Of a DNA stretch of 64,000 bases, positions 12,301 through 37,600 are shown piece by piece. This stretch comes from Lingula anatina (lineage: Eukaryota; Animalia; Brachiopoda). Every line of letters begins with the position of its first letter. Position 1 is the first letter of the stretch. The stretch is taken from positions 25,922,401 to 25,986,400 of the forward strand of contig CM120641.1 of NCBI GenBank assembly GCA_051362555.1, in the 5' to 3' direction. The notes beneath the pieces were generated by a model. It had not been told where the DNA came from. It searched no databases and saw only the letters and a list, made by a program, of their open reading frames with translations. The translations under genes and the position numbers were made by a program.

Positions 12301-13001
12301 AGTGCTAATACACAAATGCTTACTAGTACCTTGATTTCTATATCTCCAACTTTAGTATTAGACCTGATGATAGGCCTTCCTACCAAGGAAGGGAAGATGT
12401 GTTCTGGAAAGTTGGAACCTGCATAACCACATTTGACAAACTGAAAATAACCAAGATTATAAAGTTAAAAGATCTGCAAAGCCAGTCTCTCTCCTATTAG
12501 TCCTAACTCAAAAAAGTTTTTAGCATCTTGACACCTTGAGCAAAGCCACATGAAATGTTACTATCCTATGTTCCTGGAATCTCTTTACTTGAAGAGTGCA
12601 ATGTGATTAAACAAATGTACTGTGATTTACTAATCTGTCCACTAACTTTTATAGACTTTCAGAAATAGTAGGATATACAAGTAGGTTTATACGTTAAGTT
12701 TTTAACAATTGTAGCAAAATACACCATAAATAACTAGCAAATAGCAATTAACAATAATCTAAACCTATTCTAAAATCAAACGTCAGAAGTTAGAAGGCGG
12801 CAATTGTCAAATTTTAATCAAAACTCATCATAAATTTGTATGATGGGGCAGTACTTCCGTGAACGCCAAAAACAAGCTGACCGGCATCTCAAAATATAGA
12901 GTATATGAGACGGTCTACAGTGTCAACGAATAATCCAAAGTTTAGATACTAACCCCAGTGCCATTATCGCAAACTATAACTTTTCTCCCTTGGCTGTCCA
13001 T
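9347..13001 (-). CDS. ACTR2: Actin-related protein 2 (Arp2/3 complex subunit), 8 coding exons, 394 aa
   Basis: Exons 12954-13001, 12330-12440, 11886-12101, 11477-11549, 11104-11240, 10575-10724, 9894-10172, 9347-9517. All GT-AG and phase-consistent; total 1185 nt. Translation [39 protein letters not shown]...[18 protein letters not shown]...[18 protein letters not shown]...[19 protein letters not shown] is Arp2. Confidence 0.97.
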
Positions 13002-13190
13002 CCTCGATGGGCTGAGATTTAAACGTTAAACACCTATCCAAGCACAGACGACTTTTTTCCTTTACCGTAGACCCTCCCCATCAATTCCTGAGACATGTGT
13101 ATTGAATGCATTGATTGGATTATTTCTCACACCACGGTGAGACTGGCCAATAAAATGCGTTTTTACATACTAACCTAGGCATTATCCAAG
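13002..13190. promoter_or_regulatory. Bidirectional promoter between ACTR2 and NENF
   Basis: Divergent start codons only 189 bp apart; oppositely oriented CCAAT boxes (ATTGG 13114-13118, CCAAT 13147-13151). Confidence 0.7.
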
Positions 13191-14460
<1,270 letters not shown>

Positions 14461-15639: not shown

Positions 15640-18600
15640 TTAATCTTCAGATTCTTCATCTTTTTCATCAAATATGTTGGGATCTTCTGCCAGTTTTTCC
15701 AGTTCAGTCCTCAATTCCTCAACTGCTAGATGAAGTCTTCCTTTCTCGGACTCCTCGCTTATTTCCAGCCAGTCATGGCACTGCTTCAAGATCATTTGGC
15801 ATTGTAGATAAAAATGTCTACGTATGACAGTTTCTGAACCTGGAAAGTAATGTGGTTCTTTTTTTTTACACAAAATACTCAGATATTTTATCAAAATTTT
15901 AAATAACACTTAAATTACCAAAGGCCTACTTATGTGTTCATGTCAGAATTTTCTTTAAAAGGCAAGTGAATCTGGGTAAACTAACACCAATATTTTATGA
16001 CTGCAACAGTATGCATGTTCAATATAAAATTAAAAAAGTAATAATCTGCTGTTTCAATGAATGGTATGATCAATAAAGTTGGGAGAGAACATGAAATACT
16101 GTTATTGCAAGGATATTAACTATGACAGTTCCAAAATTACAATACATACTATTAGATCTACCGTTTATTATTACATTTAGCTTCAAGAAGAAACAAATGT
16201 AATCAAAAGGAAAGTGAAAAAATATATATTCAAATTTCTCTACTTATTGTTTATGCTGAAGATTTGCATAAAGGGTACATTCAAGAACCTGTTTCATTTA
16301 CATGTTAAAGTTGAAAACTGGTTTTTAGCAAAGACTTAAGAATTTTAGCCAAGTTGCAATAATCCAATGTAGACTGTGTACTAACTTTTTTTGTCTTTTT
16401 TGATTTTTTAACTAAACCCTACAAAATTGTTTGCACAGACAATATTTTTATTCTAAGTGGAGATAAAAGCTCTTTTTTAAGAGTTGAAAGTTCATCAACT
16501 ACATGTATTGTGGACCAACCACTTGTGAAATGCTTTTACTGAAAGACAAATATGAGTGCAAAGTTGACTTTGCAGTTCATTATATGCTTTCAGCAGTTTA
16601 AGTTAAACCCCAAAACTACACTTTTTATGAAACGGGCCCAGGGACTGTCAAATATGATAAAATTCACTTTGTGTATCAGATGTGACCCTTACCTGGGGGA
16701 GGTTTTCTCAGCTGTCCCAGCATAGCATGGCGTATGGTGTAGAGTCGTATCTTACTGTTGTACTGAGCACTACGGGACTAAAAAAGGACAATTAAACATT
16801 TAGATTACTTCAATATTTTTCTTATGAGCATGTTTTCCTGCTACCTGATCATCATTAAAAATAATTCAAAAGGTGGCCATTGCTGACTCTGTTGAGGGGT
16901 TGCTTGAGAAGGTTGAGAAGTGGAAGATCGGGATGGAGAAGAACGGACTTAAAGTGAACATGGGTAAGACGAAGGTGCTGATGTCAGGCCATAATCTTGA
17001 TGTTCTGAAGAAGTCAGGGAAGGTTCCATGTGGAGTATGTCTGGCTGGCACGGGCAAAAACTGCATCTTTTGTGGTGGTTGTTCCCACTGGATCCATAAG
17101 AAATGCAGTGGCATATCAGGACCGCTATGGGAGGATCCAGAGAACCGTTGTCCACGCTGTTTGGGTACCGCAAGACCAATAGACGGCAGGTTGATAACAG
17201 AAGTGGAACTGGGTGGCGAGAAACTGGAAGTTGTGCCACAGTTCTGTTACCTTGGTGAGATGATTTCTGCTGGTGGAGGTTGTGACCTCGCTGCGATCAC
17301 TCGCTGCAAATGTGCCTGGGGCAAGTTTCATCAACTTTTACCACTCCTCACAAATCGTCACTTACCACTGCTCTCAAGGGGGTGAGGTACTCTGCAGATG
17401 TGGGCTGCCACCGGTAACACTATTCAACGACTGCGCCGTAATGACCGAGCCATGATCAGATGGATCTGCAATGGCAAGCTAAAAGACGAGGTTAGCTCTG
17501 ATTCTCTGCTCCTGAAGTTGGGTCTGCAGGACATTGAGGAAGTGCTGCGCCGCAGCAGACTCCGATGGTTTGGGCATATAGAGAGAAGCGATGGCTGGAT
17601 TAACCGAGTGAGAGAAGTTGAAGTAGTGGAGGACAGAAAGAGGCCTGGCAGACCAAAGTTAGCCTGGAAGGACGTGGTGAGAAGAGACAGGGAAGCGCTT
17701 GGTCTAGTCGGCGAGGACCCTCAGGATAGATCAAGTTGGAGAGGAAGACTGCGTGTCAGACTGGCCCCACCCTCTGTTGAGGATTAATTCCAGCCAGTAT
17801 AAAATAAATCCAGATGATGATGATGATGATGATGAAAAGGCAATCAAATTTTGCTAAATTATCTTTGACAATTTTATGAAAATGTTTCACTTCATAAGTA
17901 ATATTTTCCCAACCAAAGAACCACAAAATTTTAAGTTAAAGAGAAATACACTCACTGCCTGCATTTTCATGAACAACAGCACTGAAAAAGTCTACTCTAA
18001 GAAAATATTCAACCAATGATTTATATTATTCATACTAATGTATCCTAAAATAATACCTCTCCTTCTTCAGTCCCTCTTATGCCATCATAACCAGGTTCAT
18101 TAAACATAGGATCTCCAATCAAGATCATCCCTTGTATGGAAACCAGTACCTAAGATAATAACAACTTCTTAGTGATATTTTCAGTTTATTTACATGAGTT
18201 TTTCTTTAAACATTTTTCCTTGGTATTTCATTGGACTGTCACTGATTCACTTCAGATTTAAAAAGACTTAAATCTTTGGTCCTAATGTTGTGACCAACTT
18301 TCACTCTAAAATTTTAAACAGACACATGGTTAAAGACCACATTCAGAGTCACACATCATACTAGCTGGGTCACTCCAACTCTGTAAGGGATTCCCGCTAA
18401 AGTGCAATCAGTGGAATCAGCTTAACTGTCTGACATGCCTCCTCAAGCTGCTAGGAGGTAATAAACTATTGTGCTGATTAAGCGTATTCCACCGATTTCA
18501 CTTTAGCAAGAATCCTCTACAGAGTTGGACTGAACCAGCTAGTACGGGTGAATCTGAATTCGCTCTAAGATATAGTTCCATGTTATTTATCCCCTTATCA

Positions 18601-21600
18601 TAAGTTACCTGGTACAATGATGAGGTCTTGGGGTTCCACTTCTCACTGGCGTCACCCCCGTGCCATGTTCCCAGCAGACTCAAGCACACCTTGCCATCCG
18701 CATAGAGGTTGGGATTGAACCTGTGTGACAAAAGATGCTCAGAGTATTTTTAAAATGTTCTTATTGTCAAAATCATAGTTTAACAATATCATTTACTATT
18801 AACACATATCAAATGTGTTGAAGCTATGTTTTTTGGCCTTTTTGATGCAAAAATTAAATTGAAACTCCCGACAAAAAGTGATGTTCACAGATGTAAGAAA
18901 ATTATAGAAAATACTAATGTTAAACCAAACATTTAAAGGCACATATTTTTTCAGTAATTTTTGTACATGTATGAAAATAAACTTAGTGACTGTAAACCAC
19001 AAAACTGACAAAAACCAAAATCAGAAGAAGAAAATGTAACATTCATTAGGAAAGTTTTGATGTCATTGGCAAGGTAAATCTTTTGCTTATTTTCAAATTA
19101 AATTATTAAAAAAGGACTTCAGCTAAACTTAGTGCTAATGCAGGCTAGCTGATATTTCCCCACAGAACTGACCTGACAGTGCCATTCCCTGTTGTCACCA
19201 GTTTGACCAGAGGTGGTATATGTGGGTAGTTGGTGGGGAAGTAGATGTCAAACACAAAGCAGCCTCGACTGTATGGCGTATCAGCAGGACCTGTGATCAC
19301 AGCACGTACTATGTCCATCTGATTCTCATCCTAGAAAAAAAAATTCATTTCCGATCCAGTTGATTCCAATCAAGAGTTTATATCTTAATATAAATTAAGT
19401 CAATAAAATATAAATAGAAAAAGAAATTGTTATAAAATGTACATTAGAATTGAAAGTTTGCGCAAATCTTGCGATGAGAACCAGTACAATTGTAGAATAT
19501 CTTGTGGCTTTTAACCTTTAAAACAAAAAAAAAAAAAACAAAACAAAAAAAAAAAAAAAAAAATTACCCAGTATAGACAAAATATGATCAAATTTAACAA
19601 TGCAAAATTCCTTTTCCATTTGTATCGACCTAGAATTTATTTTCAATTTGTATTACGTAATCTGTAGTTCTGGTCATCAACAGATTAATAGATATGCACT
19701 AAGGGCCATTATAGTGACATAAATAATACCTGTCTTGCAAAAATGGCAGCATTCAAGTGTACAGGCAAGTCTTTTTGTAATTGTTTGATTTCTTTCATAA
19801 GAGCCTTCCACTTCTGTGACCTGGAGAAAAATATTTCCATACATTTTTAAGAGTGTATTTTATGGAGATGTTTTAAGGCATATTCATAATGTGTTGAAAT
19901 TAAGGTCTTTTCACATCAAGCATTTATTTTAGTGTTCCAGCTGTAGCGTTCAGTTTTAAGAGGTCCTACATGTATCCTGCAATTACACATTATGTATCTT
20001 GAATGTGTTAACTTTACTTTGTGGAAGAGCAAGGCAACCTTAGGAAGTGGGGGTTTGCCTTTCTACTTCTTAAGCTTTTATTTTTATTCACAGAATGTAT
20101 TAATTTCAAATATTTGTTATTCAAATCTCAGCTATAATAACATGCTTTTCAGTCTTAAAATATACAAAGTTCACAAAACGATGTCACTAAATGCATTTTA
20201 CAACTCACCGAGGATCATGAGACTGGCCTGCACTAGTTCTAAAGCTATGACTCTCCTGGAATTTCCAATGACCATTATATTTGTTTAAAATTATTTATTA
20301 CACAGCAATGTTCAATTCCATACATCATAATCCTATACTCTTTAAAAAATCAGTCCAACACTTCAAAATATTTTCAGGGTATGAATATGGTATATCTGTG
20401 GTTTAAGACAAATGAAACGGATAAACTGACATTATGCTAAGAAAATTTTGTTTCAACTCTTAAGATCCATTATAAAGAGGATTCTAAATCTGGAGGAAAT
20501 GAATATTATTAAAGGTCCATTATTTTTACCCTCAAGTTACCTGTATGTCTGCTGTTCCATACTTTAAATCGACCATCCTGTTGTGGTATTCTTCTTCAAT
20601 ACTGGGTATGTCTAGAGGAGCTAAAATGGTGTCCCAAGCTCTTTTTTGGTCTTCTGCTCTACCCTCCACCTCTTGGACTTGTATTTCTCTCAGTTTGTCA
20701 ATCTATTGAGTATGAAAGCAATCTGAATTTCTTTTAGTTCTTCATGCTTTCATGTTTTACTTCTTCATTTTAAGTGTTACATACTATCATTTCATACCAT
20801 GATAAACGTATATATAATGATGAACTGTTGAAAAGCCAATCCTGCTGCACTGGAGGATGAAGGTATCAAGAAAGGGACAAGAAAACATGTCTCTGTGGAC
20901 CTTCAGTGTCCTTGATGCTTTTTTAGAAAATTGAAGCTCAGGCACACTCTTGATACTCCTGGATATCAAAAGAGCACTGACATAGGAAGAAATCATATTC
21001 CACCAAAGCCTAACAAATTGATAAAAAAATTAATTCACAGATAGCTCTTAATACCTGTGTTAAAAGTTCACCAAACTCCTCCACCATTTGATCATCACCA
21101 ACTCCTTTCTCGCTAAGGACTGTGTACGTCTTGGCCCATGCAGTCGGGGAGTAGTCAGGATCCATAGCCAGGCTGTGAACAAAACCTTCTGTTTTGAAGG
21201 TTTCCTCCTTTGCTATCCTCAGCAATACTTGGCAGACATCTGACAGAAGCTGACGTGGATTGAATGAATACCTGCATATGAAACATTCATTCAAATAAAA
21301 AATATTCAATGACATATAACAAATTTTCCCTATTCACATGTATGCATGCTTTACAGACTTGGCAATGTTTGTAACATAAAAACCCATGCTACATGTAGAA
21401 ATCTGTTGTTTTACAGCAAAATGCTTGAATTTTGTTTTACATATGACATGCTCTTTATTTAACTGCTGAGGAAAAACTGGACCACATCTATATGCTTACC
21501 ATAGAGACAGACTTGAAATATTGTGGCTTAAATCTTAAACAATTTTTTCAATATGTTACTGTACATGGACTATACTAAGATCCTATTTAAGCACTTACTT

Positions 21601-24600
21601 ATCCATGTCTTTCACTTTAAACTCAACAGACTTGCTCCCACAAAGAGCTTCAATAAAACCTATAAACTAAAATAAAAAACAGCATAATACCTTGAAAATA
21701 CATGTAGAACATTAAATAACTAAGAACACAGCCTGGACAAAAAAAAAAAAAAAATTCTAGAAATTAAACTTTTTTTCGATGAGGGCCTGAGACAAGACAG
21801 TAGATTTATGCAAAATGTTTCACATAATACATTTCTAAACACTGTTAGTGTAAAAAGGTTGCTGAAAGGAGAAATTCTATACTGCTTACTGCATTAGCAG
21901 CTCTCTGTGCCATAGGTTTCTGGGTAAAACATCTGGCCACTTCCTCCGATTGACTCAGCATGGTGATAAGGCCCAAAGTTTGCTTTGCCTAAAATAAAAT
22001 ACAATGACCATATGATATACACATTGACATCAACTAGCCCAATAAGAAACTGTTACAAAATTAGAATTTGAACACCACTGCAGAATTACAGAACTGGATA
22101 TTAATTTTTCTATCTTTAATATAGAAATGGTTTTAAATGCACTGCATTAAGTTGAAAATAATCTCTTGTTTCCTTTTTGTTTGTTTTTTTTTTCACATTC
22201 CGTTCAATTTCATCAACTGACTTACTTTTACTACATCTACAGCAAATCTAGTTCAAAATAGCCAAGGTGAGTGAATCCATGATAAGAAAATATAAGAAGG
22301 CAAGAGAATATGAGAAAGTGTCCCATGAAACCTCTGTTAGCAAGAGGACCTACCATTGTCATAAATCCCCTAGCTACACCCTCCTCTGATTTTAAAAACT
22401 TTTCTTTCTCTTGTTGCTGTTCCCAACTAAGTTGATCCCAAGTAGATTCTGTAAAATACACACGGTTGACACATAGAGACAGACTTCATCATTATTTTAT
22501 AGGAAATAAATAGTTGCTGTTTCCATAGCAGTCGATTGATCCTCCTTAGGAAGTTAAAAGTTAAAGTATATAAAATATAAGTTAATGTCATAAAATTACA
22601 ATATTCAAGCTGATAAATTAAAACTTCAAAATAATTTCAATTATGTAAAAAAAAAAAGTGGGAAGGGGGATAATTCTGATTACCATCCTCTTTGGCAATT
22701 TGTAGTTTTCTGACATTGGCCAACCTTGCTAAACTGTCATGTAGCTGGTACAACAGTGTATCCAGTGTGGCTCCTAGAAAAGCCTGGAATTACACACACA
22801 TATGGAAACTTTAAACAAATTGTTACCTCTAAAAGAATGTTAAATGGAGTACACTATCATACCTAACACACTGCCTCACATACCCTGCTGCCATGTCTAT
22901 CATATTTAGCACTAATATTTAGCAAGTACATAAGCATATTGTATTAACCAATGAACATTTTAATACTGTATTGTCAATAAATTGAAAATGATGTCAACAT
23001 ATAAGAGCATTTTATAATGGATATTTATACATAAACTCCTAATAATTACGTAGGCAAGTAAATGATCCATCATAAATGTGAGGCTATGAAATGTGCAATA
23101 AGGTGTGCATGTAAAATTGTAGTGGTATAGTATGTGTGAGCCATACCTGAAACTCTTCAGTTCCACACATTTTCAACACAGATATCCTGCTGTCTCTACG
23201 GTTCCACAAGAATTCCATAAGTTTACCAATATCAGCCCTAACAAAAAAGGAAAAAAATACAATGTTACCATATTAAGAAAAAAAGCACAAAATAGAATAA
23301 AATATTTAAGGTATGACAAAAGATAATAAATAAAATTTAAAAATATGTTTTTCATGGAACAACAGTGTATATTTTATTGAAATGGAACAACAGAGCAGTA
23401 TCTTGGATTGGAGTTGAATGTCTTTCTTTCAGTGCCTGTCAATATGCTCCCATATGTGTGCACAGTGTGTTAATGCCTGTGCGCGCATGCATGATTTTTT
23501 CCAACATCTCACCTTGCACTGTATTTATCAAAGTCCTCCTTGTCTACATCCAGTCCTTCAACCACATCCACACTAACATAGGTGTGGAGTAGGGCAGGCC
23601 CTAGGTGATGTTGTACTGCCTCACACGCACACACCATTAACGCCATCTCTGACATCACTTCATTGCCCCATCCTACAGATCTAGCCAGTAAACATAAATA
23701 TAATATAATTACGATAAAAACCTGAAAATTTCATCACCAAAAAAATTAATAAAAATTTTTAAATGTGTGAATCCAACATGGCAATATTAGGTGACAAACA
23801 TTTCAAAATCATTGAGAGACACATTTTCAAAATGAGAAATAATTACACTGGCATTACATTTCTGAAAAAATTTTCATGACTGACTAAATTTTTAAGCTTT
23901 TACTGTAAGCAGTAATCACAGTCAACCTTTGAAATATTGTTAGTGCTACCTCTGATACCATTTCATTGCACCACTCTACAAGAGATCCATACAGATCTAA
24001 GTATAGAATAAAAATACCTTTAAAAAATTACCCAAGTGACCATGTAGCAAGGTTTTAGATAAATGAAATCTTGGAATATCTGTGCGATCACATTTATTAA
24101 ACAAGTGAACCTTGTAAGTGGTTCTACAATTGTCTGTCAAGGTACACCCTTCCTAAATGCCACTAAAATAGGCTACACTGACACAAACTCTGTCACATTG
24201 TCAAGGAAGGACCCCCAATATGTCGCTTCACTCATTATAACAAAATACCTATACCTGCTTCCCCTGCTAGAAGTCTGCATAAAGGCTGCCAGCGCCCCCA
24301 CTATCTTACTGGCTGGAATGGGACCAGGAACAAGATCTGGTCTTTGTAACAGGTTCACACAGCAGTCCACAAATGGTGCCAGCTAAAACAAGAAATTGAA
24401 GACATATTTTACAGATAAAGGACTATCATTATGAATTTTGAACATTGCTATATAGGTAATGAAGGGTTATAACACGAAACATAAGTGTACATTTTGAAAA
24501 ACAATTTCATTCGTTCTAAGGTTCATAATTCAAGCAAGAGATAAGCAACTGTCTTTTTTTTTAATATATCAATTTTTTTCTCTATTATCAAAGACACAAA

Positions 24601-26742
24601 ATTTATTTTTCATATGGTTGGTTATTACTGTCATTGGTAAAGAGAAAAATATTACAGTATGAAAGCAATGTCAATTTTCAATTAGGCCAATCTTTATATA
24701 CAAACATGTCAAAATTCTTTGTACACAAAAAAATGATGCCTGCAATATGAAAAATTCATCAGGTAGACAAAGATAGAACTACTCATAGTTATATACTGTA
24801 GACCTCATGTGCAGTGTAGTCAATGCCCATGTACCCTGCTATAAATACCTGCAGTCCTATGAGAACTTTGGGTTTCAGCACTACAACTTGTCTGGCCACA
24901 AAAGAGAACCATATGGCCATGTCCTTCACTATGTACTCAGGGAGCTGAGCAAACACCCGTTTTTCAAGCATGGTAACTTCTGCTTTATTTCCCTTTGGAA
25001 AAAAAGAGATAATGCAAGAATTAATGTAGAACAGCGAGTAAAGGAAATAAATCAATCTCAATAGATTCAAATGCAGAGTAGAGCAGTATGTTCTAATCTG
25101 AGGAGGATTAAGATTTCCTTGGTCAATGAAAAAGACTCTTTCACCTTCTCTCTACATCTTTGTAGCAACAGGTCAAGCCACATTGCCTGAGTTATGTAGA
25201 ATTCGGAGGTTTTCCTTATGAATTCTGGGTCCATAATGCAAGAGTCCCATCGCCAGCAATACACCTAAAATGGTATAAAAATAGTGATGTGGAAAACTTT
25301 ATCTCATGAAATTAAAGAAGAAGGATATGGGTGTGGCAGTGTGGAAGACAGTTTGAAAATATTCAATATTCACTACAATAATGTTTGCAAAGGTAAGTAT
25401 GTATGATATTATATATCCCAATCTTTCTTTGGTTATACCTGATAAAAGTATGCTTACTGCTATAAATTGATTAAAATCCAGTTGCGTATTCTATCATTTC
25501 AAAATTTAACTGAATCTAAGAATTAAAAGTAACTGATTTAAGAATGACACATGGTTTACAAGCTTATATGTTCAATATCATTTTTCTTACTGCTTCTTGT
25601 GCTTGAAGTTGTTCTTCCAAAGGTGTCCCTTGTTTGGCAGCTCTAGCTCTCTGAATCTGACTGTAAGAATAAAGAATGGAGAAATGCTTCATCAGCATAT
25701 ACAGCAAGACGTGTGCCTCAAAACTCAGTCATTGCTAATTTTAGTAATAGATCCAAAGTTCCTCTCATCAACATTTTCATAAATTTTGAAAAAATCTTAT
25801 TTCTTAAAATTGACTCCAGAACTCGCTTAAGTTTTGATATTTAGAGCACAAAAATAGGAATATAATTCTTTCCACAAAATACAGAAAGTGTTGAAACATG
25901 AAATTACATACTGAATATACTCACCCTAAAAGTTTGATGAAATGTGTCAGAGATGGAAGGCTTCCAATGTTCATTGCTCTTTGGGTCAAATGGAAAACTT
26001 CCGTCATAAAGTTAAATTGTTCTACACTACTCTCACATTTATTCTTGGTGTCATCATCATCCAGAGTTTTCTCAGAAACTATTTTTTAAGAAAAAGAATG
26101 ACATCATGATGAATTAATATGACAACTTATCACCATGACTATCAAAACAGTTTTCAGATTTAAATAATTTATTTGATAACTGACCCATTTCAGGGTTATC
26201 ATCTGATACTGTATCAACAATTTTCCCATGAACATATTAAGTTGTGTACTTTTTAAACACCTAGATTTATAAGGCAGGTTATGATATTCAAAAAATTCCT
26301 AATAACTTGCTACACTACTTTTTCTTATGGAGAAAGTTCCATAGCAAATATCCCAGGGCTGTAGTTATTATAACTATTATAGGACATTTAGAATTAATTT
26401 TCCCTATTTTTCTGTTTGGTCCACTCACCTATTTGACCTCCAGCCAAGCAGGTCTCATAATCATAGTTTAATAAGCATGCAGCAGAGTGCGAGTAGCCGG
26501 AATCAATTTTTTCCAGCTTGGATATGTCTTTGAAAAATGGCACACAAAACTCTAAAAGGACTGCACAGAGATTCTGCATAAAGCCTAAAAAAGTAGCAAA
26601 GATACAGATACATTTTTTATTATTTCAGCGAAAAATTTCCTGACAAAAAAATGATGGTGTGAAAAGGCGTTCATACTTTATAACATATAACAAAACTACT
26701 AAGTATGTGAATATATTTAGAAAAAGTTGTTTTATGTTACAC

Positions 26743-26841
<99 letters not shown>

Positions 26842-26845
26842 TCAT

Positions 26846-26902
<57 letters not shown>

Positions 26903-28910
26903 ACGTGACAATGCATTAGATATGACAGTGTATGACCCATTGCAGTAGTTGTGGCAAAGTGTTGATAGTGCCAGTATAGTGTAAAAGACAGTGTGCTGGT
27001 TGTGACAATACACTGTGTATATATACCATCAGTACAGCTGGCAGAACCATCTGTGTTATCTTGGTAAGGATTTGAAGAGAGGCGCATCTCATTCATGTTT
27101 ATCACTGTGGCTATCCACTCCAGTGCTACATCACGGCAGCTCTTCATCATCTTCTTCAATCCACAGTAAACTGCACTTTGGCATTTGTAGAGGACAGCTT
27201 GAATGTTGCCCTGTATATAAAACAAAGCATTCATGTGTAGGCACAACTACTTAAGTCTAAGTCTATTAAATTTATTGTCCTTTAAATCTCCTCCAGAGTT
27301 GAATCAATTTTAAGAAGTATTCTGTTCATTTCAATTGTTCCATCCAACTTTTACTAACAAGTAAATGTTATCCTCATAGAATTTACCTGACAGAAACTCA
27401 TAAATAACACTAAAACATAAAATGTATATATCTTACGAAAAGCCTCAGAAGAGAAATGTGAATCTCAAACTTAATTTGGCTTTATCGTTTCACAACAAAT
27501 TATCCTTCACAAAATTTCCAAAAAAATTCTAAGAAAATTCCTGAGTACCTGTACTCTTTGTATATCATCTGCAAAAGGTTTTGGAAATCTAGGCAAACTG
27601 GTGAACATCTGGGCCTGAACTGCCTTCAGATTTAATCCATCTTTCACATCAGTTGGAATGATGCTCACTGACAGCAGTGGACCAAATACAGACTCCCTCT
27701 CAAAGTAGGCTCCCTAGTACAGAGTCAGCACATGTTAAATCATGTGAAGTATAATGAACCATATAATTTTTAATTTACAAAATATACAAAAAAAAAAAAA
27801 AAAAAAAAAACTAATGAAATTATATTTTTTCTCTTGGTATAAATAATATACTTTTTGTAAAACATCAATTAATACAATAAATATCCTACTGTGTAATGTC
27901 CTTCTAATGAAACTCAACTGATACCTTTAGCCAAAGAAATACTTAATAAAAACATATACACTATTATCAAAATTTGTAAATAGCTTGTCCTTACCAAATG
28001 TTCTTTGCCAGCCTTTATTTCTTCCTTTAGTCTAACACTCAATACTGGCACCAGCAGAGGCTACAAATCAGAATTAGATGTGAAAGTTTAGTTATTAACT
28101 CTGAAGATAACTTTATTCTTATATTTTACATTAATATACATATAACCGCAAAGCAATTATTGCAGATTCAAAATACACATCTTTTGTAAGAACCCTACCT
28201 GATTCATCAAGATCTCCACTCCATTGAGTAGAGCTGCATTTTGTAATATGGCTTCATCAAGCCTGAAAATACAGAGACACAATGTATCTGGATCATTGTA
28301 AGGTGTTCAAATCAGCAGTAACGACCATGACATCTATTAAAAATATCAAATCTTCATTAAAAAATAAAACTGCCAAGGACCAGTAAGTATAGAAAAAATT
28401 TACATCAAAATACACCAAAACTACAGTAACTTTGGTACATAACAACAAAAATTAAACAAATCTCTTCAATTTCACCTGAAAAAAAAATGGATTACATCAG
28501 AGAGCAACATTTCCTTGTAACTCAATCAATTAATATATTTTAAAAATTGATTAAATGCAGTGCTTAAAATTAATGCATAAGTATAAATACCATACCTCTT
28601 GCTGTTTTTGATTTGCAGCCCACTGACTCTCAGCACCTGAATTATGGCCTTTCTTCCCTCTGCTGTCTGCACTGCCTGTGTTAGGATCAGTTCTAGTAGA
28701 GCTGGGGGCACTGCCACCCCGCCACACCCAGACACCCCCTGCAGGAACTGTGTTATCACTGTGGAGATACTGTCGCTTGTTGTTACATCAGACCAAAAGT
28801 CATCATCATCTGAAAAATCTGAAAGACAGAAAAAGAGCAATTCATATAAACTTCTTTTATGTAGACATCTTCCTTTTTGTTCCCTTATTACCCTTTTTAT
28901 TTGACGCACA

Positions 28911-28980
<70 letters not shown>

Positions 28981-31900
28981 TTTTTATTAAAAAATGTACT
29001 AGGTAGCTGCAAACATCTATACCAACACACAACTTACCAATTTCTAACTCCTTTAAAATAGCACAAGCTAGCCCTGTCTTCACTGCCTCCAGTATGAATT
29101 TTGCCAAGGATTCAGGTCTCTGAACCTCAAAACACCTGTCAAAGCATTGCACACAAAGCCCCACCTTGTCCCTGTGTTCACGTCTGACCCTCTTCTGGAC
29201 CACCTCACAAACCACTGCACTAAGCTCAGCCTCTGAACTGGGGATGTTCTTTAAATACAGTTTTGAGAGACTTTTTGGGGTGCTTTTTTCGCCCTGCAGC
29301 TCCTAAATATGATTAAATGAAGGAATATATGAAATATTGAATGACTGTATTAGGGAAGGAAGGAATAGTATCACACGATATTCTATCAAAATTCATGAAG
29401 GAAATTTATTTGAATCAAATACTTGCAATTGAAGTCTGAACATATCTTCTAAAATTAAATACAGGGTTGCATTATTCTATAATGTAAATGACAAATTGCA
29501 TAATTGGAAAAAAGTGAATAGCATGTGATATTCATACCACTGGAATGTCAAGGACATCAGACAGCAGTAGTGGAACCAGAGTTTCATTTGGCAGTTCTTC
29601 AACACTTTTACTTTCACTTATTTCTTCCACTTTCTGTGCAATAACTTTAGATTGTGTTTTTTTCTCAGGTGACTGTGACAGGAGACAGGTATGTTCTTCA
29701 CTTTCAGGCTCTATTATAGTTTCTGACATGTCAGGACTGTTCCCCTGAGCTATGGGTGTGACAAGTGTTTGAGCTGAGGAAACAGCATGCTGATTTTCTT
29801 TAGCAGTATCATTTGCTGACACTGAAGACACCATAAAACCAGTGTCTGTTTTATCAGTTCCTGTATCTTGTTCATTTTTGGATAGGGTATGTGATAAATG
29901 CGACGTCAATTCTTGACCTGTAAAAGATGTAACCATAATATCTGCATTTACACTTAAATCTTGAACATGCTCAAGAACATTTTGCTCATCTTCTAAGTGC
30001 CCCTGATGTAAATAATGCTGTTCTTCATTAACATCTTTTTTCTCTTGTTTCTGCAGTAAAATTTGGTGACACTTCAGTTAATGGTTTGTTCAATTTTGAA
30101 AGTCAAGCATTCCTTAGTTCATCAGCTGATAGCACTATAAAGAAATAAAAAATTGGGTATAAAGAATAGTTGCATATGATTTTTCACTTTTAAACTTAAT
30201 TTTCAAATTTTGCTAACTTATATTCATGTGCATCTATGCAGAGTGCAAGTGTGCACGAAGTTTTGTAATAGAAATATCTGATAGACTTGAAGAACGATAT
30301 ATTTCATTTTGGTGTGCCAGTAAAAAGAATGAGTGTACTATTACTAACCCCTCCCATGTTGCTGTTGCTTCTTTTGTTTGACTTTTGTTTTTGGTACTGC
30401 TAGCGCACCGGGGCTCCTCACTGAACCAGTCATTTCCGCAGGGGAAGTATCCTGCTGATCCTCTTTAGCAGTATGGGCATTTGTCACTGTGGATATTAGA
30501 GGTTCTGTGTCTGTTTTACCAACAACTGCGGCATCTTCACTGTCTGCTCGATCGTTGTCACAATCATCATAATTTTGTTTCAGTGCTGCTGGACTCTTAT
30601 GTGATGACTCCTGGTTTTCATGTTTCCTCTTTCTCACATTTTTCTGTGAAATGTCACTTTTTCCATCTTTCTGTGGTAATTGTGATGGCTCTTGAGGGGA
30701 AGACCTGGTCAATTTTGATAGTCGCGCATTTCTCAACTCTGCAGCTGACGGTGCTGTAAGAAGATAAAATCATGAGAAGTATTCAACTAATACCTTTGTT
30801 TAAGTTTTTTTTTTCTATTTTAATGAGGCACAAAAAAAAATTCTGCTCTAAATAATGGAGCTTATTAAATTAATCATGATCTGAAACTACATGGTTGTTA
30901 TCACCAGAATAATTTAAAATCATCAGACATCCAGATGAAATATATAAAATATAATTTTGTACATATGTATTATCAAAAGGAACTTCTGATTACTACAGAT
31001 GAAATTATTAAGTTGTCCTACTTCCAGGTGGATTTGGTGTCTTTCTTTTCTTACCTCTCCCTAACTGTTCTTGTCTTTTCCGGGTCATTCCATACCCTAT
31101 GGCTGCCAGCAAGAGCAAGAAGACCACAAGACCTACTTCACGAAAACCAAATTTCCATGGTGGAGTTTCAACCACTGGCACATGCCTGTCATCATGTACT
31201 TGGCCTTTTCTACTTTCAACCACTTTCAGAAGAAGTTCCTTCAATTTCTACAAAATTAAATAGATTTCATAGATAATAAATGATTTTTAAATAACTGATG
31301 TAAAGTTATTAAGGACGTATGTAAATACAGAAATAAATTGAATTGAATTGAATTGAATTGTTAAAACAGATGTCTGGTAAATACCTCCTATCAGTAGGCA
31401 TGCAAGACATCAGAATCCCTTAAGCTGAATGCAATTTAGTGAAAAACCTCTCAGAGATGGGTCGATACTGCTAGATCGATCTAGGTACACCGGAAAAGGG
31501 TCTAAGACTTGACCCAGATGCCCAGCTGAGTGATTAGACCCCACCCCACAATATTATCCTCCTCTGCTCTTGAGCCACTGTTTAAGACTGGGTTCCCATC
31601 CTTATATCGATCTAACAGGATCGGTCCATCTCCACGGGGTCCCTCGATAAATTGCTTTCAGCCTAAGCGGATTCGACGTCTGGGATAGCCACTAAAGCGG
31701 CTAAACGATAGTTAATTACCCCCTATCAGCCTCAGCAGGTGTGACAGTCATTTAAGCTGCCCAAGTTAATTGCAATTAAGTGAGAATCCCCTCGGAGATA
31801 GTTCGATCCAAAGTTAGTACAATACTCTCTGGGAATGGTCTCTAAGAAGCCAGTGTGGGCAGGGTAGTTGCATAAGAGCAGACATGCTGATTGAGTGAGT

Positions 31901-34222
31901 TCCTACAGTGACCTATACTTTAATTTTGTATACTATTTTAGATGTCCCTGATATCAGAGGGTAATTAAAAGGTTACAGTACAATGTCAATTGATAATTAA
32001 TTGTAATTTAAATATATAAGAAAAATAGAGGACTTCTCGTACAAAAATCATGAAATACCCTACAGAATATGACAAATGAAAGTTCTGTAGACCTTATCTA
32101 ATGGGATCCATGTAGTTACATATAGAATCTGCGATTAAGGAGTTACATGGCTGCTTTACCCATGGAATGCATGATGACACTAAAAATTTAGTTAAATGGG
32201 ACTTAGATGGGATTTGTTAACTATAAGGGTGCTTGGGACCTTATGGTTCATGAGAAGTAATGTTTACATTAACTCTCAAACCTTAACAAATGCCAGTACA
32301 GAGCACTATTACATGTATACTTGTAACACTAACAACTGCATACATGTATAAAGTTAACATTTTTAAAACAGAAATGGACATTGTTTATATACATTACCTC
32401 CTGTGATAGCCTTTCAGTAACATCCCAGACAGCTTCATCACTTTCCTCCAGGCTAAAGTAGCCATCTCTATTTAGATCATGAACTATTTTTAAGTCACTT
32501 ATCTCCTAAAAGAGAAAGAAGTGATTAGAACATTTACTTTTACTGGCACTTTCTGGCACTGGTGCAAAAATTAAAATATAAGAAGAGAAAAGAAATGAAA
32601 AAATTAGGCAACAAAGTATTAGGCTATAGTTACTCATAATCATTTACTTAATTCTTTTAGGACCCTCATACATAGATATACCTGCACGTCCACGAACTGG
32701 GTAACAGTAGTGGGTGATCATCTTTAAAAGTCTGTCAAAATATGCCTGTGCGTTGGATTTCAATGGGGGGGTTTTCACGTGAAAGGGGATAGATTTGTCT
32801 TATTACAACAAACAATTTCATGTTTCCAAACATTGCTGTGTATTTAAAATTTTTTTATTCTTACCCAAAAATGACACTAAAACAGAGCTCAAATCTGGGA
32901 CACAGCCATACCAGTCCGTTTTGCAGCTTTACGTTATGGAAAAGAAAGCTCTCACAATAGTATTTTCATGTTTTTTTGGTCATCTCAGGGATCATTTACG
33001 GCACACACACTAGAGAAAACAAAAATTGCTCTTGGTCGCAAATTTTAATTTAAGAAAACAGGTTGTTATGTGTTACTATCATTTCCGTTTTCAACTTCAG
33101 TACAAAGTATCATCTCCCGAAGACATGAACTAAACAAATCGTTTCGTTTCGGGATGTCCCACATTAAAGCATTGTTTACCTTAAGTGTCATTTTCAGCTA
33201 AGAATTAAAAAAAAGTTTAGAATAGTCACAGCAATTTTTAGAAACACAAAATTATTTTTTTAATAATAAGACAAATCCATCCCCTTTTACATGAACCCAG
33301 CACCACTGTAATCCAACACATAAGAATATTTTGACAGTCTTTCAAAGATGTTGTTACCCAGTATTGTGGACGATATATATATATATATGCATGATGATGA
33401 GAGAGTAGCACCTGTTCTGAGAGTTTTAGCTCCTTAACCAATTCTTCAAATGACACTGTTACACCTTGCTGTTTCTCTGTAGCCTCGCTGCAATCAGAAA
33501 AATATGATTCATAGTGTCAAATATTGTACAGAAACCGTAAGAAAAAACACCCATAAATAAAAGGTACGTGTCAATGGAGATTTAATCTTCATACACATCA
33601 AAGGTGAATTTTTGCTGAAATTGTAGAAATTCATTGTCACTGTAGAGATGTCATCACACCATTTTTAAAAATCAATAGATATTTGCAAGAAAAATTGATT
33701 TGAAGTCCATTCTAGTACATACCAAATACATATAAAAGATCATATAAACATACAATTTGCAATCTTTAAAATGGAACAGAGGGGGGGGGGGGGGGGGGCA
33801 AATCATGGCCTATAAACATGTTAATTAAAATTAACAGATTTTAACAAAAGGAAGTATCCATCTAATGATACATTGATACATTCAAAATTGTTATGGTCTT
33901 AATTTTTTGTAGCAATCATGAGCTAACTCACTTAATTAAGTTATTGGGATCTTATCATGTTACAAAACCCTCAGTTTGTATACATTGTGCGTCATGAAAC
34001 TTTAGCAAAAAGGTTCATTTTAAAACCATGGCGGCCTTGAACGGAGAAAGCACCAGCATATAATGGCAATGATTTATAAAGCGAAAGTTATCCTCCTTTC
34101 ACATTTACTGTACATGTATTTCATTAAAAAAATTACGTTTAAAATGGTTTTACAGGTCCTTATACTTACCATGAAAAATACACTACCAAGAAAAATGTCA
34201 TTAAATGCACGAGATTCAGCAT
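15640..34222 (-). CDS. Chimeric type-I membrane protein: signal peptide, EF-hand, TM, VBM-like motif, Ufd2/UBE4 core and BIRC6/UBE2Z-like UBC (E2) domain; 33 exons, ~1579 aa
   Basis: Exons 34170-34222, 33412-33487, 32398-32505, 31055-31247, 30349-30753, 29538-29917 (acceptor inferred), 29038-29302, 28596-28818, 28199-28262, 27995-28060, 27549-27713, 27027-27210, 26429-26584, 25925-26078, 25591-25660, 25145-25264, 24849-24992, 24255-24382, 23513-23680, 23147-23237, 22684-22783, 22354-22448, 21890-21988, 21599-21666, 21055-21271, 20541-20702, 20209-20255, 19730-19820, 19173-19330, 18609-18720, 18057-18149, 16693-16777, 15640-15839; total 4740 nt, all GT-AG and phase-matched. Ufd2-core hallmarks: [32 protein letters not shown]...[54 protein letters not shown]...[35 protein letters not shown] hallmarks: [66 protein letters not shown]. 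Confidence 0.82.
16874..17834 (+). mobile_element. 5'-truncated RTE-clade-like LINE fragment, antisense in intron 31 of the Ufd2-UBC gene
   Basis: Two consecutive ORFs (16873-17385, 17398-17787) encode the 3' end of an RT ([43 protein letters not shown]) with an inserted Cys/His finger. (GAT)7 tail at 17813-17834; AAAAGG target-site duplication at 16868-16873 and 17835-17840; GC-richer than the host intron. Confidence 0.88.
26746..26899. repeat. Compound (GA)n(GT)n microsatellite
   Basis: GA run to ~26790, then two GT runs separated by GCGCGCATTCATGA; intronic. Confidence 0.95.
28910..28977. repeat. (AAAT)n microsatellite
   Basis: About 17 units in intron 7 of the Ufd2-UBC gene; causes the YLFI repeat in ORF 28526-29215. 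Confidence 0.95.
29918..30134 (-). pseudogene. Disabled 5' part of a duplicated exon (second VBM-like copy)
   Basis: Phase-1 acceptor ttatag|TG at 30134 reads [14 protein letters not shown] (TGA at 30103-30105 where exon 5 has CGA). It is then one base out of frame with the downstream KQEKKDV...MVTSF frame. Confidence 0.7.
31394..31693. mobile_element. Degenerate foldback element (MITE-like) in intron 3 of the Ufd2-UBC gene
   Basis: Left arm GAATCCCTTAAGCTGAATGCAATTTA...GAGATGGGTCGATACTGCTAGATCGAT pairs imperfectly with right arm ATCGATCTAACAGGATCGGTCCATCTC...TAAATTGCTTTCAGCCTAAGCGGATTC. Confidence 0.55.
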
Positions 34223-34616
34223 GGCTTTAGTATACCAAGGCATTCCTTAAAATAGCTAATATAACATTTGGCAGGCCGACAGTTCAGGTAAACACAACAT
34301 CATTCCAGAGCGGAAATCCTAGAACTGGATCTTGGGCGAATAAAATTAGGTCAAGGGAATCCCCCCAAACTAACAAGTAATGTAGAATAACAATGAAACT
34401 GTTTAAACCAGATTGTTTTTCGAAAATCACACTCTAAGAAGAGCGTAACGACCAATTTCTTCTTTTAAATAACCAGTGGCTTTAAACTGTTTGACGTAAA
34501 CAAGATGTTTTTGGGGGAATTTTCCACAAATTTCTAAATGACGTGTACCGCTATGGACTGTGGGATACATTAAAGACCCAGTTATGTTGCGCACGCGTAA
34601 GCATTCTGTAGGCAAC
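34223..34616. promoter_or_regulatory. Bidirectional promoter between the Ufd2-UBC gene and DNAAF2
   Basis: Divergent ATGs 394 bp apart; CpG-enriched relative to flanks; forkhead cores GTAAACA at 34288-34294 and 34496-34502; CRE-like TGACGTAA at 34492-34499. Confidence 0.6.
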
Positions 34617-37600
34617 ATGGCGTCGAAACGAGGCGGCTTAGAGGGTTTGGATTTGAGTTCTGATGAAATCAAACGTTTAACAAATGCCCTGAAAAATGAA
34701 GAGTTTCGAAAGCTATTTGCAGAATATGCAGAGGAAATATCTGACCCGGAAAACCGCAAACGGTATGAAGAGGAGATCGCGCAACTGGAGTCGGAAAGAG
34801 GCATGGACATCACGTTTGTAAACCCAGACCCTGGATACGTAATAAAAACAACCGTTAATGGTGAGCAAAAGGCCTTCATAAATATCTGTAAGAACGAGCA
34901 CATTGATAAGCCACAAATGACGAAAGAGCTTGGGCCTAATGGAAAGACGAGAGTGGGTTGGCAGATTCCACACAGTTTCTCTCCACCGCGCGATGACTTG
35001 GACAAGGGAGGACAGAAATGCAAAGTTTACGATGTCGTTTTCAACCCTGACGCCTACAGAATGGCAGAGTCTAATGCGCGATTCAAGAAGATGATCCAAG
35101 ACACTGCATTCGATGGCATTGAAAGGCAGTTTGATGTGAAACTGGATCGAAAGAATTTGAAATTTCCGAAGATGAAATTTAAAGGCGTTCCCGTGGCGAC
35201 TGTGATTCGAAAACGAAAGGATGAAGGGCCTAATGAGCAAGACAAACCAGCGACAAAAGTTGAAGGTGATGCAGATGATGATGACCCATTGAGTAAATTA
35301 CCATACCCATATGATAACAAAACAACAGAAGAAAAGAGGATAGTCAGAGAAGAAGAACTGGCAAAACAAAATGCTAAAAAGGCCGAAACTGAAGCAAAGA
35401 CCAAAGTTACAGCAACATCAACTAAAGATCCAGATGCTGCAGAAATTCCTGTATACCACATCATCCATCGCTCAGACATGGACTTGGGAGACTATCGTAA
35501 TGCTCCAGATGCTAAGACCAGCACACGACCCAAGGAATTGGCAGTTGTAGTAACACTACCTCTTTTGAAATCGGCAGCCAATATTGATTTAGAGATATTT
35601 GAGAAAAGGCTGCTTTTAGAATCGGAGACTCCAGCTAAGTATAAGCTGGACCTAAACCTGCCTTATCCGGTGGATGAAACCAAAGGATCAGCCAAATTTG
35701 ATAAGAACAAGCGCCAGCTTATTATCACTCTACCTGTTTTGCCAGCTGAGACACCAAAACTGCCTTCATTTATTGATGATAAAGAAGAAAACCCGCCTCT
35801 GCAGAATGGAACTTTGTCCAATAGTGCTGCAGATGGCAAACCACTGGTTGAAGTGATATCGTCTTTAGAAAATGAAAATCCATCAGCCACTGCCACTGCC
35901 CCAGTGAGCTCAACAAATCACTCAGTGAAACTACAAATTCCATACAGCCTTCCTGAGTATGACATATTCCAAGATGAAACCAATGTCTCCGTCATTATAA
36001 ATGTGAGGAGAGTTGACAAGGCCAGCTGTAATGCCACTTTCACTCAGGCAGGATGCTCGCTGCAGATGACATCATTAGGAAGCGGAGGATTCCCGAACCA
36101 CTACAGTATTTGCCTCAGTTTTCCCGATAAACACTGCCTGGCCAAGGACATGTGCACTGTTGATATTGGAGAGACCAATGTTGTCGTCCTCTTGAAGAAA
36201 AATGAAGATTGTCAAAGTCAGTGGGAAAGCTATTCAGTTGGCCTAAATGAAGACCATTTAGAGGTAGGTTTATATTACTGTAAAAGTGTATATGAAAGGA
36301 TTTAAAAAGATTTTCGTTTTAACTGAAACGGGTATTTTTTTCCTACCCTCTTTCCTTTATTTCTGTGGATTCTGTTGTGTTAGGGAATGTGGAAAAGAAG
36401 TTGCCATCTGTAACATAAAAAAATTATACAAAGGTAAGCGGAGGTTAAATATAATCAGTAACAGAAGTTTGTTTGCAACCAGGAGCAACAGTATTTTTAG
36501 GAAGTTTCTTGATATTTCTTCTGGAGGTTTGTAGGTTTTTAATTAAGAAGTAGGATTATTTACACATTTGACAATAACCTCATTTCAGGGGATTTTTCTG
36601 ACCCAATTATTCGATTATTCATGGGATTCCCCACATTATGAAGGCGTGCATGATTGCGATTGGTTTATTTATGAACCTTTAACATCCCCAATTGATAGTT
36701 TATATTGTAGATGTATGGTGGAATGAGAGAAGTTGTAACAGTGAGTACAGGCCAGCATTACTTTAATATTATAAGATAAGAAACATCACATAGTAATCCA
36801 AACTTGTCACCATGTTAATCTGAGTAGTTAATGTAATACATTTAGTCTGAGGTGGCCACAGTGTTATTTGTCAGTTGTCCACTGACAAGATTTATGGGAA
36901 TAGTATGAAAACATCAGAGTAGTCATCACAATGTTTCAACATTAGTTTGATAGGAATATTGCATCACTGGCATGATTATTTTATGAATTGCAAAATGATA
37001 TGGGCGAAATGTGTGCACAGATGCAGTGAGGTCAGTGAAGAGTGACATTGCAGTAGGTGTGACAGCTGATTGTGTAGATGACGCACCTTGGAGGATTTAT
37101 TGCATAGTGTCGCGGCACATCCTGGTTAAGTGCTTGTGAGATCTGATCAGCAAAACTAGGTGAGATTTGCAAAATAGGTTAAGATTCATTTTTAAATACT
37201 GGTAAATTGCTTCACTTGAAAGAGTGTGTTAAGCATTAAATTGTGAAAAGAGCTATTTTATTGATGAGAGAGAAATATAGTATTTTAAAGAAAATATTTC
37301 AGCTGGTAGAATATATGTCCCTAAATTTTTGTCGCTTGCACTTCTTGATATTTTTCTCAAAATTTTATTGAGTCAGAGTGTGCTAGAATTGGAAGGAAAG
37401 CGATTATGTTAATAAAAAGAAAACTAATACTGTTTGAAAAGACAGGACTGTTGGATGTCAGGGATTCATTTGAACTGATAACCTAGGCAATATTTTAACA
37501 ATGCCTGGACTTGTTTTAATTAAAGCTTGTTCCAATCAGTAGCAGAAACACATTGCTATTCAGCAGTGTGCGACATGTAAAGGTGAAAGATAATGAAAAA

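Follow-up and report, generated by a model that had tools for sequence, protein, structure and literature searches.

A Ufd2-type ubiquitin enzyme with a fused BIRC6-type conjugating domain, a predicted membrane anchor and a worn EF-hand-type loop in Lingula anatina

Can calcium on one side of a membrane govern the building of ubiquitin chains on the other? The question is raised by a minus-strand gene at positions 34222-15640 of a 64,000-nucleotide stretch of the brachiopod Lingula anatina (assembly GCA_051362555.1, contig CM120641.1, positions 25,922,401 to 25,986,400; hereafter the window). An earlier note, made from the letters alone, had read the start of this gene as giving a ubiquitin-conjugating (E2) and chain-elongating (E4) chimera the topology of STIM, the Ca2+ sensor of the endoplasmic reticulum (ER). 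The evidence below establishes how the gene is spliced, in what order its domains stand, that this layout is conserved across animals and that the catalytic cysteine is invariant. As to what the protein does, we judge the odds slightly in favour of a whole mechanism in which it is a membrane-tethered, self-charging, p97-recruiting elongator of ubiquitin chains in quality control of the ER-associated degradation (ERAD) type. Gating by Ca2+ is a possible reading of the sequence and not a result.

The gene model, built from splice coordinates, comprises 33 exons separated throughout by GT-AG introns and has one open frame of 1,579 residues (protein P0001). Exons 1-5 join in phase through their GT-AG sites, in-frame stops precede the exon-1 ATG, and the allelic differences checked in exons 1-5 were all synonymous or missense (10/10). 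The in-phase splicing of exons 1-4 onto exon 5 and the coordinates of loop and helix given in the earlier note were correct. The protein runs from a signal-peptide-like start through an EF-hand-type loop, a hydrophobic helix, a VBM-like helix and a disordered linker to a Ufd2 core and a BIRC6-type UBC domain, encoded as follows.

34170..34222, minus strand: exon 1, with the ATG and a signal-peptide-like segment (residues 1-17); joint to exon 2 read in 4/4 RNA runs
33412..33487, minus strand: exon 2, with the predicted cleavage site, the start of the ectodomain and an unconserved 'partner' stretch (33459-33421)
32398..32505, minus strand: exon 3, a helix-loop-helix with the EF-hand-type loop
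32443..32478, minus strand: 12-residue EF-hand-type loop (residues 53-64), from orthologue comparison and orthologue Pfam EF-hand matches
31055..31247, minus strand: exon 4, with the ectodomain stalk, hydrophobic helix (31136-31086), TRKR (31085-31074) and donor (31055)
30349..30753, minus strand: exon 5, with the VBM-like helix (30736-30713, residues 150-157) and the start of the low-complexity linker
29918..30134, minus strand: decayed tandem copy of the start of exon 5
29538..29917, minus strand: exon 6, with the remainder of the linker; RefSeq X3 has the same short form
20700..27686, minus strand: Ufd2P_core, residues 621-1265, exons 11-26 (Pfam E 1.2e-96 on P0001)
18084..19801, minus strand: BIRC6-type UBC, residues 1341-1476, exons 28-31
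19189-19175, minus strand: UBC insertion loop (presumed position)
18686-18684, minus strand: catalytic Cys1429, within the UBC
15640..15839, minus strand: exon 33, the last, with the stop codon

The gene is LOC106153808, which RefSeq lists as 'uncharacterized' with isoforms X1-X3 and which was the sole protein that an exon from the Ufd2 region matched at 100% identity. RefSeq X3 and our model have 1,421 of 1,446 residues in common from Met133 onward, so the downstream junctions accord with an independent annotation of another allele. Met133, the final residue of the hydrophobic helix, is where X1, X2 and X3 alike begin; the RefSeq proteins therefore include the joint of exons 4 and 5 and exclude the N-terminus under study.

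For the N-terminal exons we turned to RNA reads from four raw-read runs of the same species, drawn from three studies and other individuals, with 6-25% of each run used and reads placed over 29850-34340, i.e. the joints of exons 1-6. The joint of exons 4 and 5 (31055>30753), which had been proposed from the donor at 31055, was present in all four runs (3, 2, 10 and 6 reads; 21 in total), as was that of exons 1 and 2 (5, 6, 6 and 5 reads), its position shifted by a synonymous difference at 33487. Exons 2 and 3 were joined in three of the four runs (3, 0, 7 and 10 reads), and exons 5 and 6, at 29917, likewise in three (6, 8, 0 and 8 reads), with 2 reads close by in the fourth. Together with the exon 3>4 reads described below, these joints place exons 1-5 on one transcript. 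Read-through of exon 4 to a stop at 31008, which the earlier note had set against the spliced form and which would yield a 159-residue product, was not seen: depth over 30900-31049 was 0 in three of the four runs and 0.12, in the opposite orientation, in the fourth. A separate small gene ending at 31008 was accordingly rejected. Run X4 also held ~12 same-strand reads passing from exon 2 into intron 2 (33303-33411), 5 of them starting at 33303, and no exon 2>3 joint; they could represent an extended exon 2 or derive from a repeat, an inverted-repeat arm lying at 33257-33350.

Taken by itself, a type-I topology with a predicted signal peptide and a single membrane helix is very probable. Both segments were assigned by hydropathy, conservation and eye. 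The signal-peptide-like segment ends at residue 20, within exon 2, and the hydrophobic helix (residues 117-133), followed directly by the basic TRKR, scores higher for hydrophobicity than any other 19-mer in the protein (2.05 on the Kyte-Doolittle scale, compared with 1.55 for the N-terminus). An uncleaved signal would likewise leave the EF loop luminal.

The catalytic half is an E4 scaffold with its own E2. Ufd2P_core is complete, covering positions 1-627 of 628 of the Pfam model, and neither P0001 nor any of 29 further proteins gave a U-box match at E<=0.5. Directly after the Ufd2 core, in cis, comes the UBC. Its best solved-structure match was BIRC6 (E 2e-72), aligned without a gap over the insertion loop; it is 76.8% identical to 22 orthologues, and its catalytic cysteine is invariant in 74/74 rows. 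An AlphaFold2 model of core plus UBC from a relative, P0026 (mean predicted local distance difference test (pLDDT) 88.8; predicted TM-score (pTM) 0.89), matches the BIRC6 UBC and yeast Ufd2 (2qiz/9khs; ~20% identity to yeast Ufd2 by structural alignment) and is consistent with the two forming one fixed unit. The Lingula UBC keeps this insertion loop, which we located presumptively through a BIRC6 residue number. One report ties the loop to a preference for the ubiquitin-activating enzyme (E1) UBA6 (PMC13623948). Titles in the PDB pair fly BIRC6 and UBE2O with UBA1, so the charging E1 may be UBA6 or another such as UBA1. In a tree of UBC domains the chimera UBCs stood apart from the giant BIRC6 rows (branch support 91), which is compatible with the Ufd2-UBC chimera being a single old fusion. 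Two further features were seen in this part of the family. An acidic motif of the core (P0001 residues 957-973) is almost invariant, with D961 and D963 in 74/74 rows; it aligned to differing sequence in yeast Ufd2 and is a candidate family-specific patch for binding ubiquitin or substrate. Other fusions of BIRC6-type UBCs appeared among the matches in precomputed Pfam annotation, with E1-like domains (P0085, P0086, P0088) and with PUB, UBX or RING domains (P0090, P0091).

The family is broad. Searching with P0001 residues 540-1511 returned 92 proteins, 75 of which carried Ufd2P_core and UQ_con (query counted), and further searches added more members. Those named come from amphioxus, Owenia, gastropods, a chiton, corals, anemones and sponges and, outside animals, from chytrids, green algae, an amoebozoan and euglenozoans; no full-length vertebrate, arthropod or nematode member was named, in searches that were word-limited or unnamed and so do not show absence. 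A FastTree tree built on the Ufd2 core united the animal rows in one clade (28 rows, Shimodaira-Hasegawa-like support 100), within which sponges, cnidarians and bilaterians form groups; the trees are midpoint-rooted and have long branches, so we do not use them to say whether a feature was gained or lost. When conservation of helix and loop was checked, signal plus single helix occurred in 23/27 full-length animal clusters, 19 of which had an EF loop between the two, and the whole layout of signal, EF loop, helix and Ufd2/UBC was found in a calcareous sponge, cnidarians and molluscs. Several animal clusters are unbroken frames of 1,530-1,640 residues on 4.8-6.5-kb contigs, which we read as transcript assemblies. 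Among 50 non-animal rows with a full N-terminus, a single N-terminal anchor was present in five and an EF loop in none (0/50). The five (P0061, P0162, P0195, P0216 and P0235, a chytrid and Diplonema among them) mostly have an Arg-rich helix after the anchor, so anchor, p97 helix and enzyme can stand without an EF-hand. Green-algal-type rows (P0031, P0032, P0056, P0070, P0073-P0076) have an N-terminal UIM-like motif, not an anchor.

In animals an Arg-rich segment lies ~15 residues past the hydrophobic helix. The consensus of the p97-binding motif VBM is aliphatic-R-x-x-R-x-x-R (PMC5559722), which, allowing R or K last, was matched in Lingula, amphioxus, Owenia, 6/7 cnidarian rows and the sponge Sycon; a true U-box Ufd2 protein, P0094, begins with a near-identical helix. 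From its sequence the helix under the membrane, on which the earlier note had not remarked, is likely to bind p97, and it is the best clue of this kind to an ERAD-type role. The linker from membrane to enzyme comprises 236 residues, 8% conserved and 79% disorder-prone. The tandem copy at 29918-30134 is identical to the start of exon 5 at 38/60 nucleotides; it is intact in RefSeq X1/X2, where it supplies a second VBM-like helix, and carries a stop and a frameshift in the window allele. No reads covered 30000-30299. Branchiostoma belcheri and Sycon likewise have two VBM-like helices.

These features suggest the following course for the mechanism that we favour. After signal cleavage and stop-transfer the EF loop would face the lumen of the secretory pathway, with all of the protein past residue 134 in the cytosol. 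An E1, possibly UBA6, would charge the UBC cysteine; the Ufd2 core would grip an already ubiquitinated substrate while the fused UBC lengthened its chain in cis, replacing the U-box and free E2 of yeast Ufd2; and the sub-membrane helix would recruit p97 for substrate extraction. The EF-hand would be an accessory added in animals, serving pairing or partner binding. Protists, a chytrid, amphioxus and Owenia have the anchor without an EF-hand, so the design does not depend on the sensing of Ca2+.

Several observations weigh against tethered, p97-linked elongation. First, residence of the protein in the ER is something we infer. Second, the VBM match is imperfect, with Lys at the last position in Lingula and Trp in place of the central Arg in 11/11 mollusc rows. 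Third, the joint of exons 3 and 4 was read in only one of the four runs (X7, 4 reads), and the joints checked in reads were those of exons 1-6. In the other three runs depth on both exons declines towards the exon 3>4 joint, and the missing reads would fit dropout at a junction word, a known weakness of the tool. Fourth, anchor-less forms exist: four demosponge-like rows (in which 5' truncation is possible) and most algal and protist rows have no anchor, all three RefSeq isoforms start at the end of the Lingula helix, and Littorina is annotated with anchored forms, with forms that have another, soluble N-terminus and with forms starting past the helix.

What, then, of the EF-hand? The Lingula loop keeps ligand-type residues (D1, N3, D5, G6, S9, E12), and the description of it as canonical did not hold: it has Lys at -4, His at -1 and Ser at 13, where 18/18 orthologue loops are hydrophobic, one Lingula population has Arg at position 13, the loop fails a PROSITE-type EF pattern, and exon 3 alone had no Pfam match. 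Nor did the degenerate partner hand proposed beside it survive, since that stretch (residues 28-40) is 10.5% identical to orthologues, the background level. A relaxed loop pattern arose in 203/200,000 shuffles of the ectodomain. Comparison with 22 orthologues gave 41.7% identity over the loop and 7.6-9.5% over its flanks. The pattern used to choose the orthologue loops sets positions 1, 6 and 12; among those that it leaves free, -4, -1, 9 and 13 were EF-typical in 18/18, and all 17 orthologue loops in MAFFT alignment A1 share one column. A Pfam EF-hand family was matched at the loop site in 12/17 orthologues, all below the curated cut-off. Sycon ciliatum has two loops forming a full EF pair that passes it (EF-hand_7, 33.9 bits; cut-off 30). 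A hidden Markov model (HMM) of 18 orthologue EF regions, searched in six frames, did not pick up the loop of Lingula (E<=10), and an ungapped position-specific matrix set the orthologue EF region on Lingula residue 53 (z 7.4, 0/3,000 shuffles). A model of a coral ectodomain showed one helix-loop-helix (pLDDT 80-88 there) and no packed second hand (pTM 0.44); its top Foldseek rows were mostly EF-hand proteins, none at E<=0.001 (best VIA Z 4.0), and the ESM Atlas gave no usable match with the N-terminus of P0018 as query. The loop is absent from three Branchiostoma species and Owenia, where signal and helix are present. By these comparisons the EF-hand of the family is real and in most members single, and the Lingula copy is among the most worn. 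In most orthologues the hand probably binds Ca2+, and some lineages can do without it.

Lone EF-hands tend to pair up, and this underlies the strongest competitor of the elongator mechanism, that ubiquitination is gated by Ca2+. Here luminal Ca2+ would set whether the lone EF-hand pairs with that of a second chain, clustering the p97-binding helices and enzymes and switching elongation on or off when the store empties. The loop is the sole conserved island of the ectodomain, the positions left free by the search pattern are EF-typical, the Sycon pair passes the Pfam cut-off and the coral ectodomain was modelled as a lone helix-loop-helix, all as such gating would have it; against this, the loop is missing in amphioxus and Owenia and eroded in Lingula, and at the Ca2+ level of the lumen a loop of canonical type might remain saturated. 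The long disordered linker between membrane and enzyme disfavours rigid trans-membrane coupling, so that only clustering could carry a signal. The likeness to STIM1/2, which the earlier note had stressed, stands for the layout of signal peptide, luminal EF-hand and single membrane helix (predicted in Lingula). It fails beyond that: neither a luminal SAM domain nor the cytosolic CC1-3/SOAR part of STIM (domain list in PMC11785200) gave a Pfam match in 30 proteins (E<=0.5) or in 5 (E<=0.1), a conserved hidden hand is lacking, the pair occurring in Sycon alone, and on the cytosolic side stand a disordered linker and a ubiquitin enzyme. We therefore regard Ca2+ gating as unlikely, and hold with the same reserve the wider idea of an ancient receptor-type enzyme of animals, from calcareous sponges to brachiopods and molluscs, that would link Ca2+ in the lumen or outside the cell directly to chain building in the cytosol through EF-hand pairing.

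Somewhat more doubtful is a receptor-like ligase that resides in the Golgi, in endosomes or at the cell surface, and in which a Ca2+-stabilised ectodomain or the helix would select a membrane partner to be ubiquitinated for sorting or turnover. The PA-TM-RING proteins RNF43, ZNRF3 and RNF13 are type-I membrane ubiquitin ligases with an ectodomain, and the protein would work like enzymes of the RNF43/ZNRF3 type, though both their ectodomain and their catalytic module are unrelated to those of the Lingula protein. Such a role would suit the conservation of the type-I layout with an ectodomain in animals only, an ectodomain gained at the base of animals, and the long acidic stalks of gastropod orthologues. 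It sits poorly with an ectodomain that ranges from 22 to 175 residues, has hardly any cysteines or glycan sites and is nearly absent in Owenia, and with a VBM-like helix that suggests p97 pathways.

Least probable by some way is that the working Lingula product is a soluble enzyme from Met133, with exons 1-4 a leader or separate small gene: the RefSeq starts, the exon 3>4 joint absent in three runs, the X4 reads entering intron 2, the HMM that missed the loop and the anchor-less annotated isoforms of Littorina speak for it, and against it stand exons 1-4 open in frame from an ATG behind upstream stops, allelic differences that leave the frame intact, the lack of read-through to 31008, the matrix hit at residue 53 and orthologues with the same layout in single frames.

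How does the proposed anchored elongator compare with known ubiquitin enzymes? With UBE4A, UBE4B and yeast Ufd2 it shares the full-length Ufd2P_core and the fold match to 2qiz/9khs, and, N-terminal to the core, it has a candidate VBM helix where UBE4B has its VBM (PMC5559722); it differs in having a UBC in cis without a U-box and in adding signal peptide, EF loop and membrane helix. With the hybrid E2 and ligase (E3) enzymes BIRC6/BRUCE and UBE2O the link is the UBC, for which BIRC6 is the best solved match, whereas the Lingula protein, at 1,579 residues, is one third the size of BIRC6 (~4,800), has no BIR match and carries a membrane anchor. Hrd1, gp78 and RHBDL4, p97 cofactors of the ER membrane, likewise combine an anchor with a short Arg-rich p97-binding helix, with ligase activity in Hrd1 and gp78; the Lingula protein is single-pass, without a RING, and has its own E2 and a luminal EF loop. 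SELENOS/VIMP is grouped with the same cofactors. Its parts belong to known families, but the protein as a whole falls outside each of them: the absence of a U-box separates it from UBE4, that of a BIR domain from BIRC6, and that of a SAM/SOAR match and a hidden hand from STIM.

The architecture is real and conserved, and appears undescribed. No paper on the family was found in full-text literature, a scope outside which supplements and subscription journals fall, so that a prior mention is possible. A Chlamydomonas orthologue stands in two papers as a table entry only (PMC7522501, PMC7838096), and Ufd2 and UBC domains are mentioned separately (PMC6548493). Database entries for the family are 'uncharacterized' or bear one-domain names, the Lingula entry being without its N-terminus. 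Across eukaryotes there is a Ufd2-type E4 scaffold that carries a fused BIRC6-type E2 in place of the U-box, and with it the way in which Ufd2 positions its E2 can be tested in a single chain. Animals add a type-I anchor and a luminal EF-hand, a combination with the E4-E2 fusion that was not found in the literature searched. The series of hands, two in Sycon, one in corals and molluscs, an eroded one in Lingula and none in amphioxus and Owenia, is a natural set for asking whether store Ca2+ steers ubiquitination directly.

The surroundings of the gene hold several other features. A Kintoun/DNAAF2-like gene (PIH1 and PIH1_CS; 34617-36305, plus strand) lies head-to-head with the E2/E4 gene, the start codons ~400 bases apart, and the two likely share a promoter. 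Two inverted-repeat elements resembling miniature inverted-repeat transposable elements occupy parts of intron 2 (32719-33350) and intron 3 (31393-31960); the latter has high RNA depth and many loose ends, i.e. is multi-copy. Three further features were identified by eye: frame fragments like those of long interspersed nuclear elements or other retrotransposons in the exon 31-32 intron (16849-17787, plus strand) and, downstream, the start of a neudesin/cytochrome-b5-like gene (13179-13373, plus strand) and an Arp2-like actin-related gene (9813-12400, minus strand).

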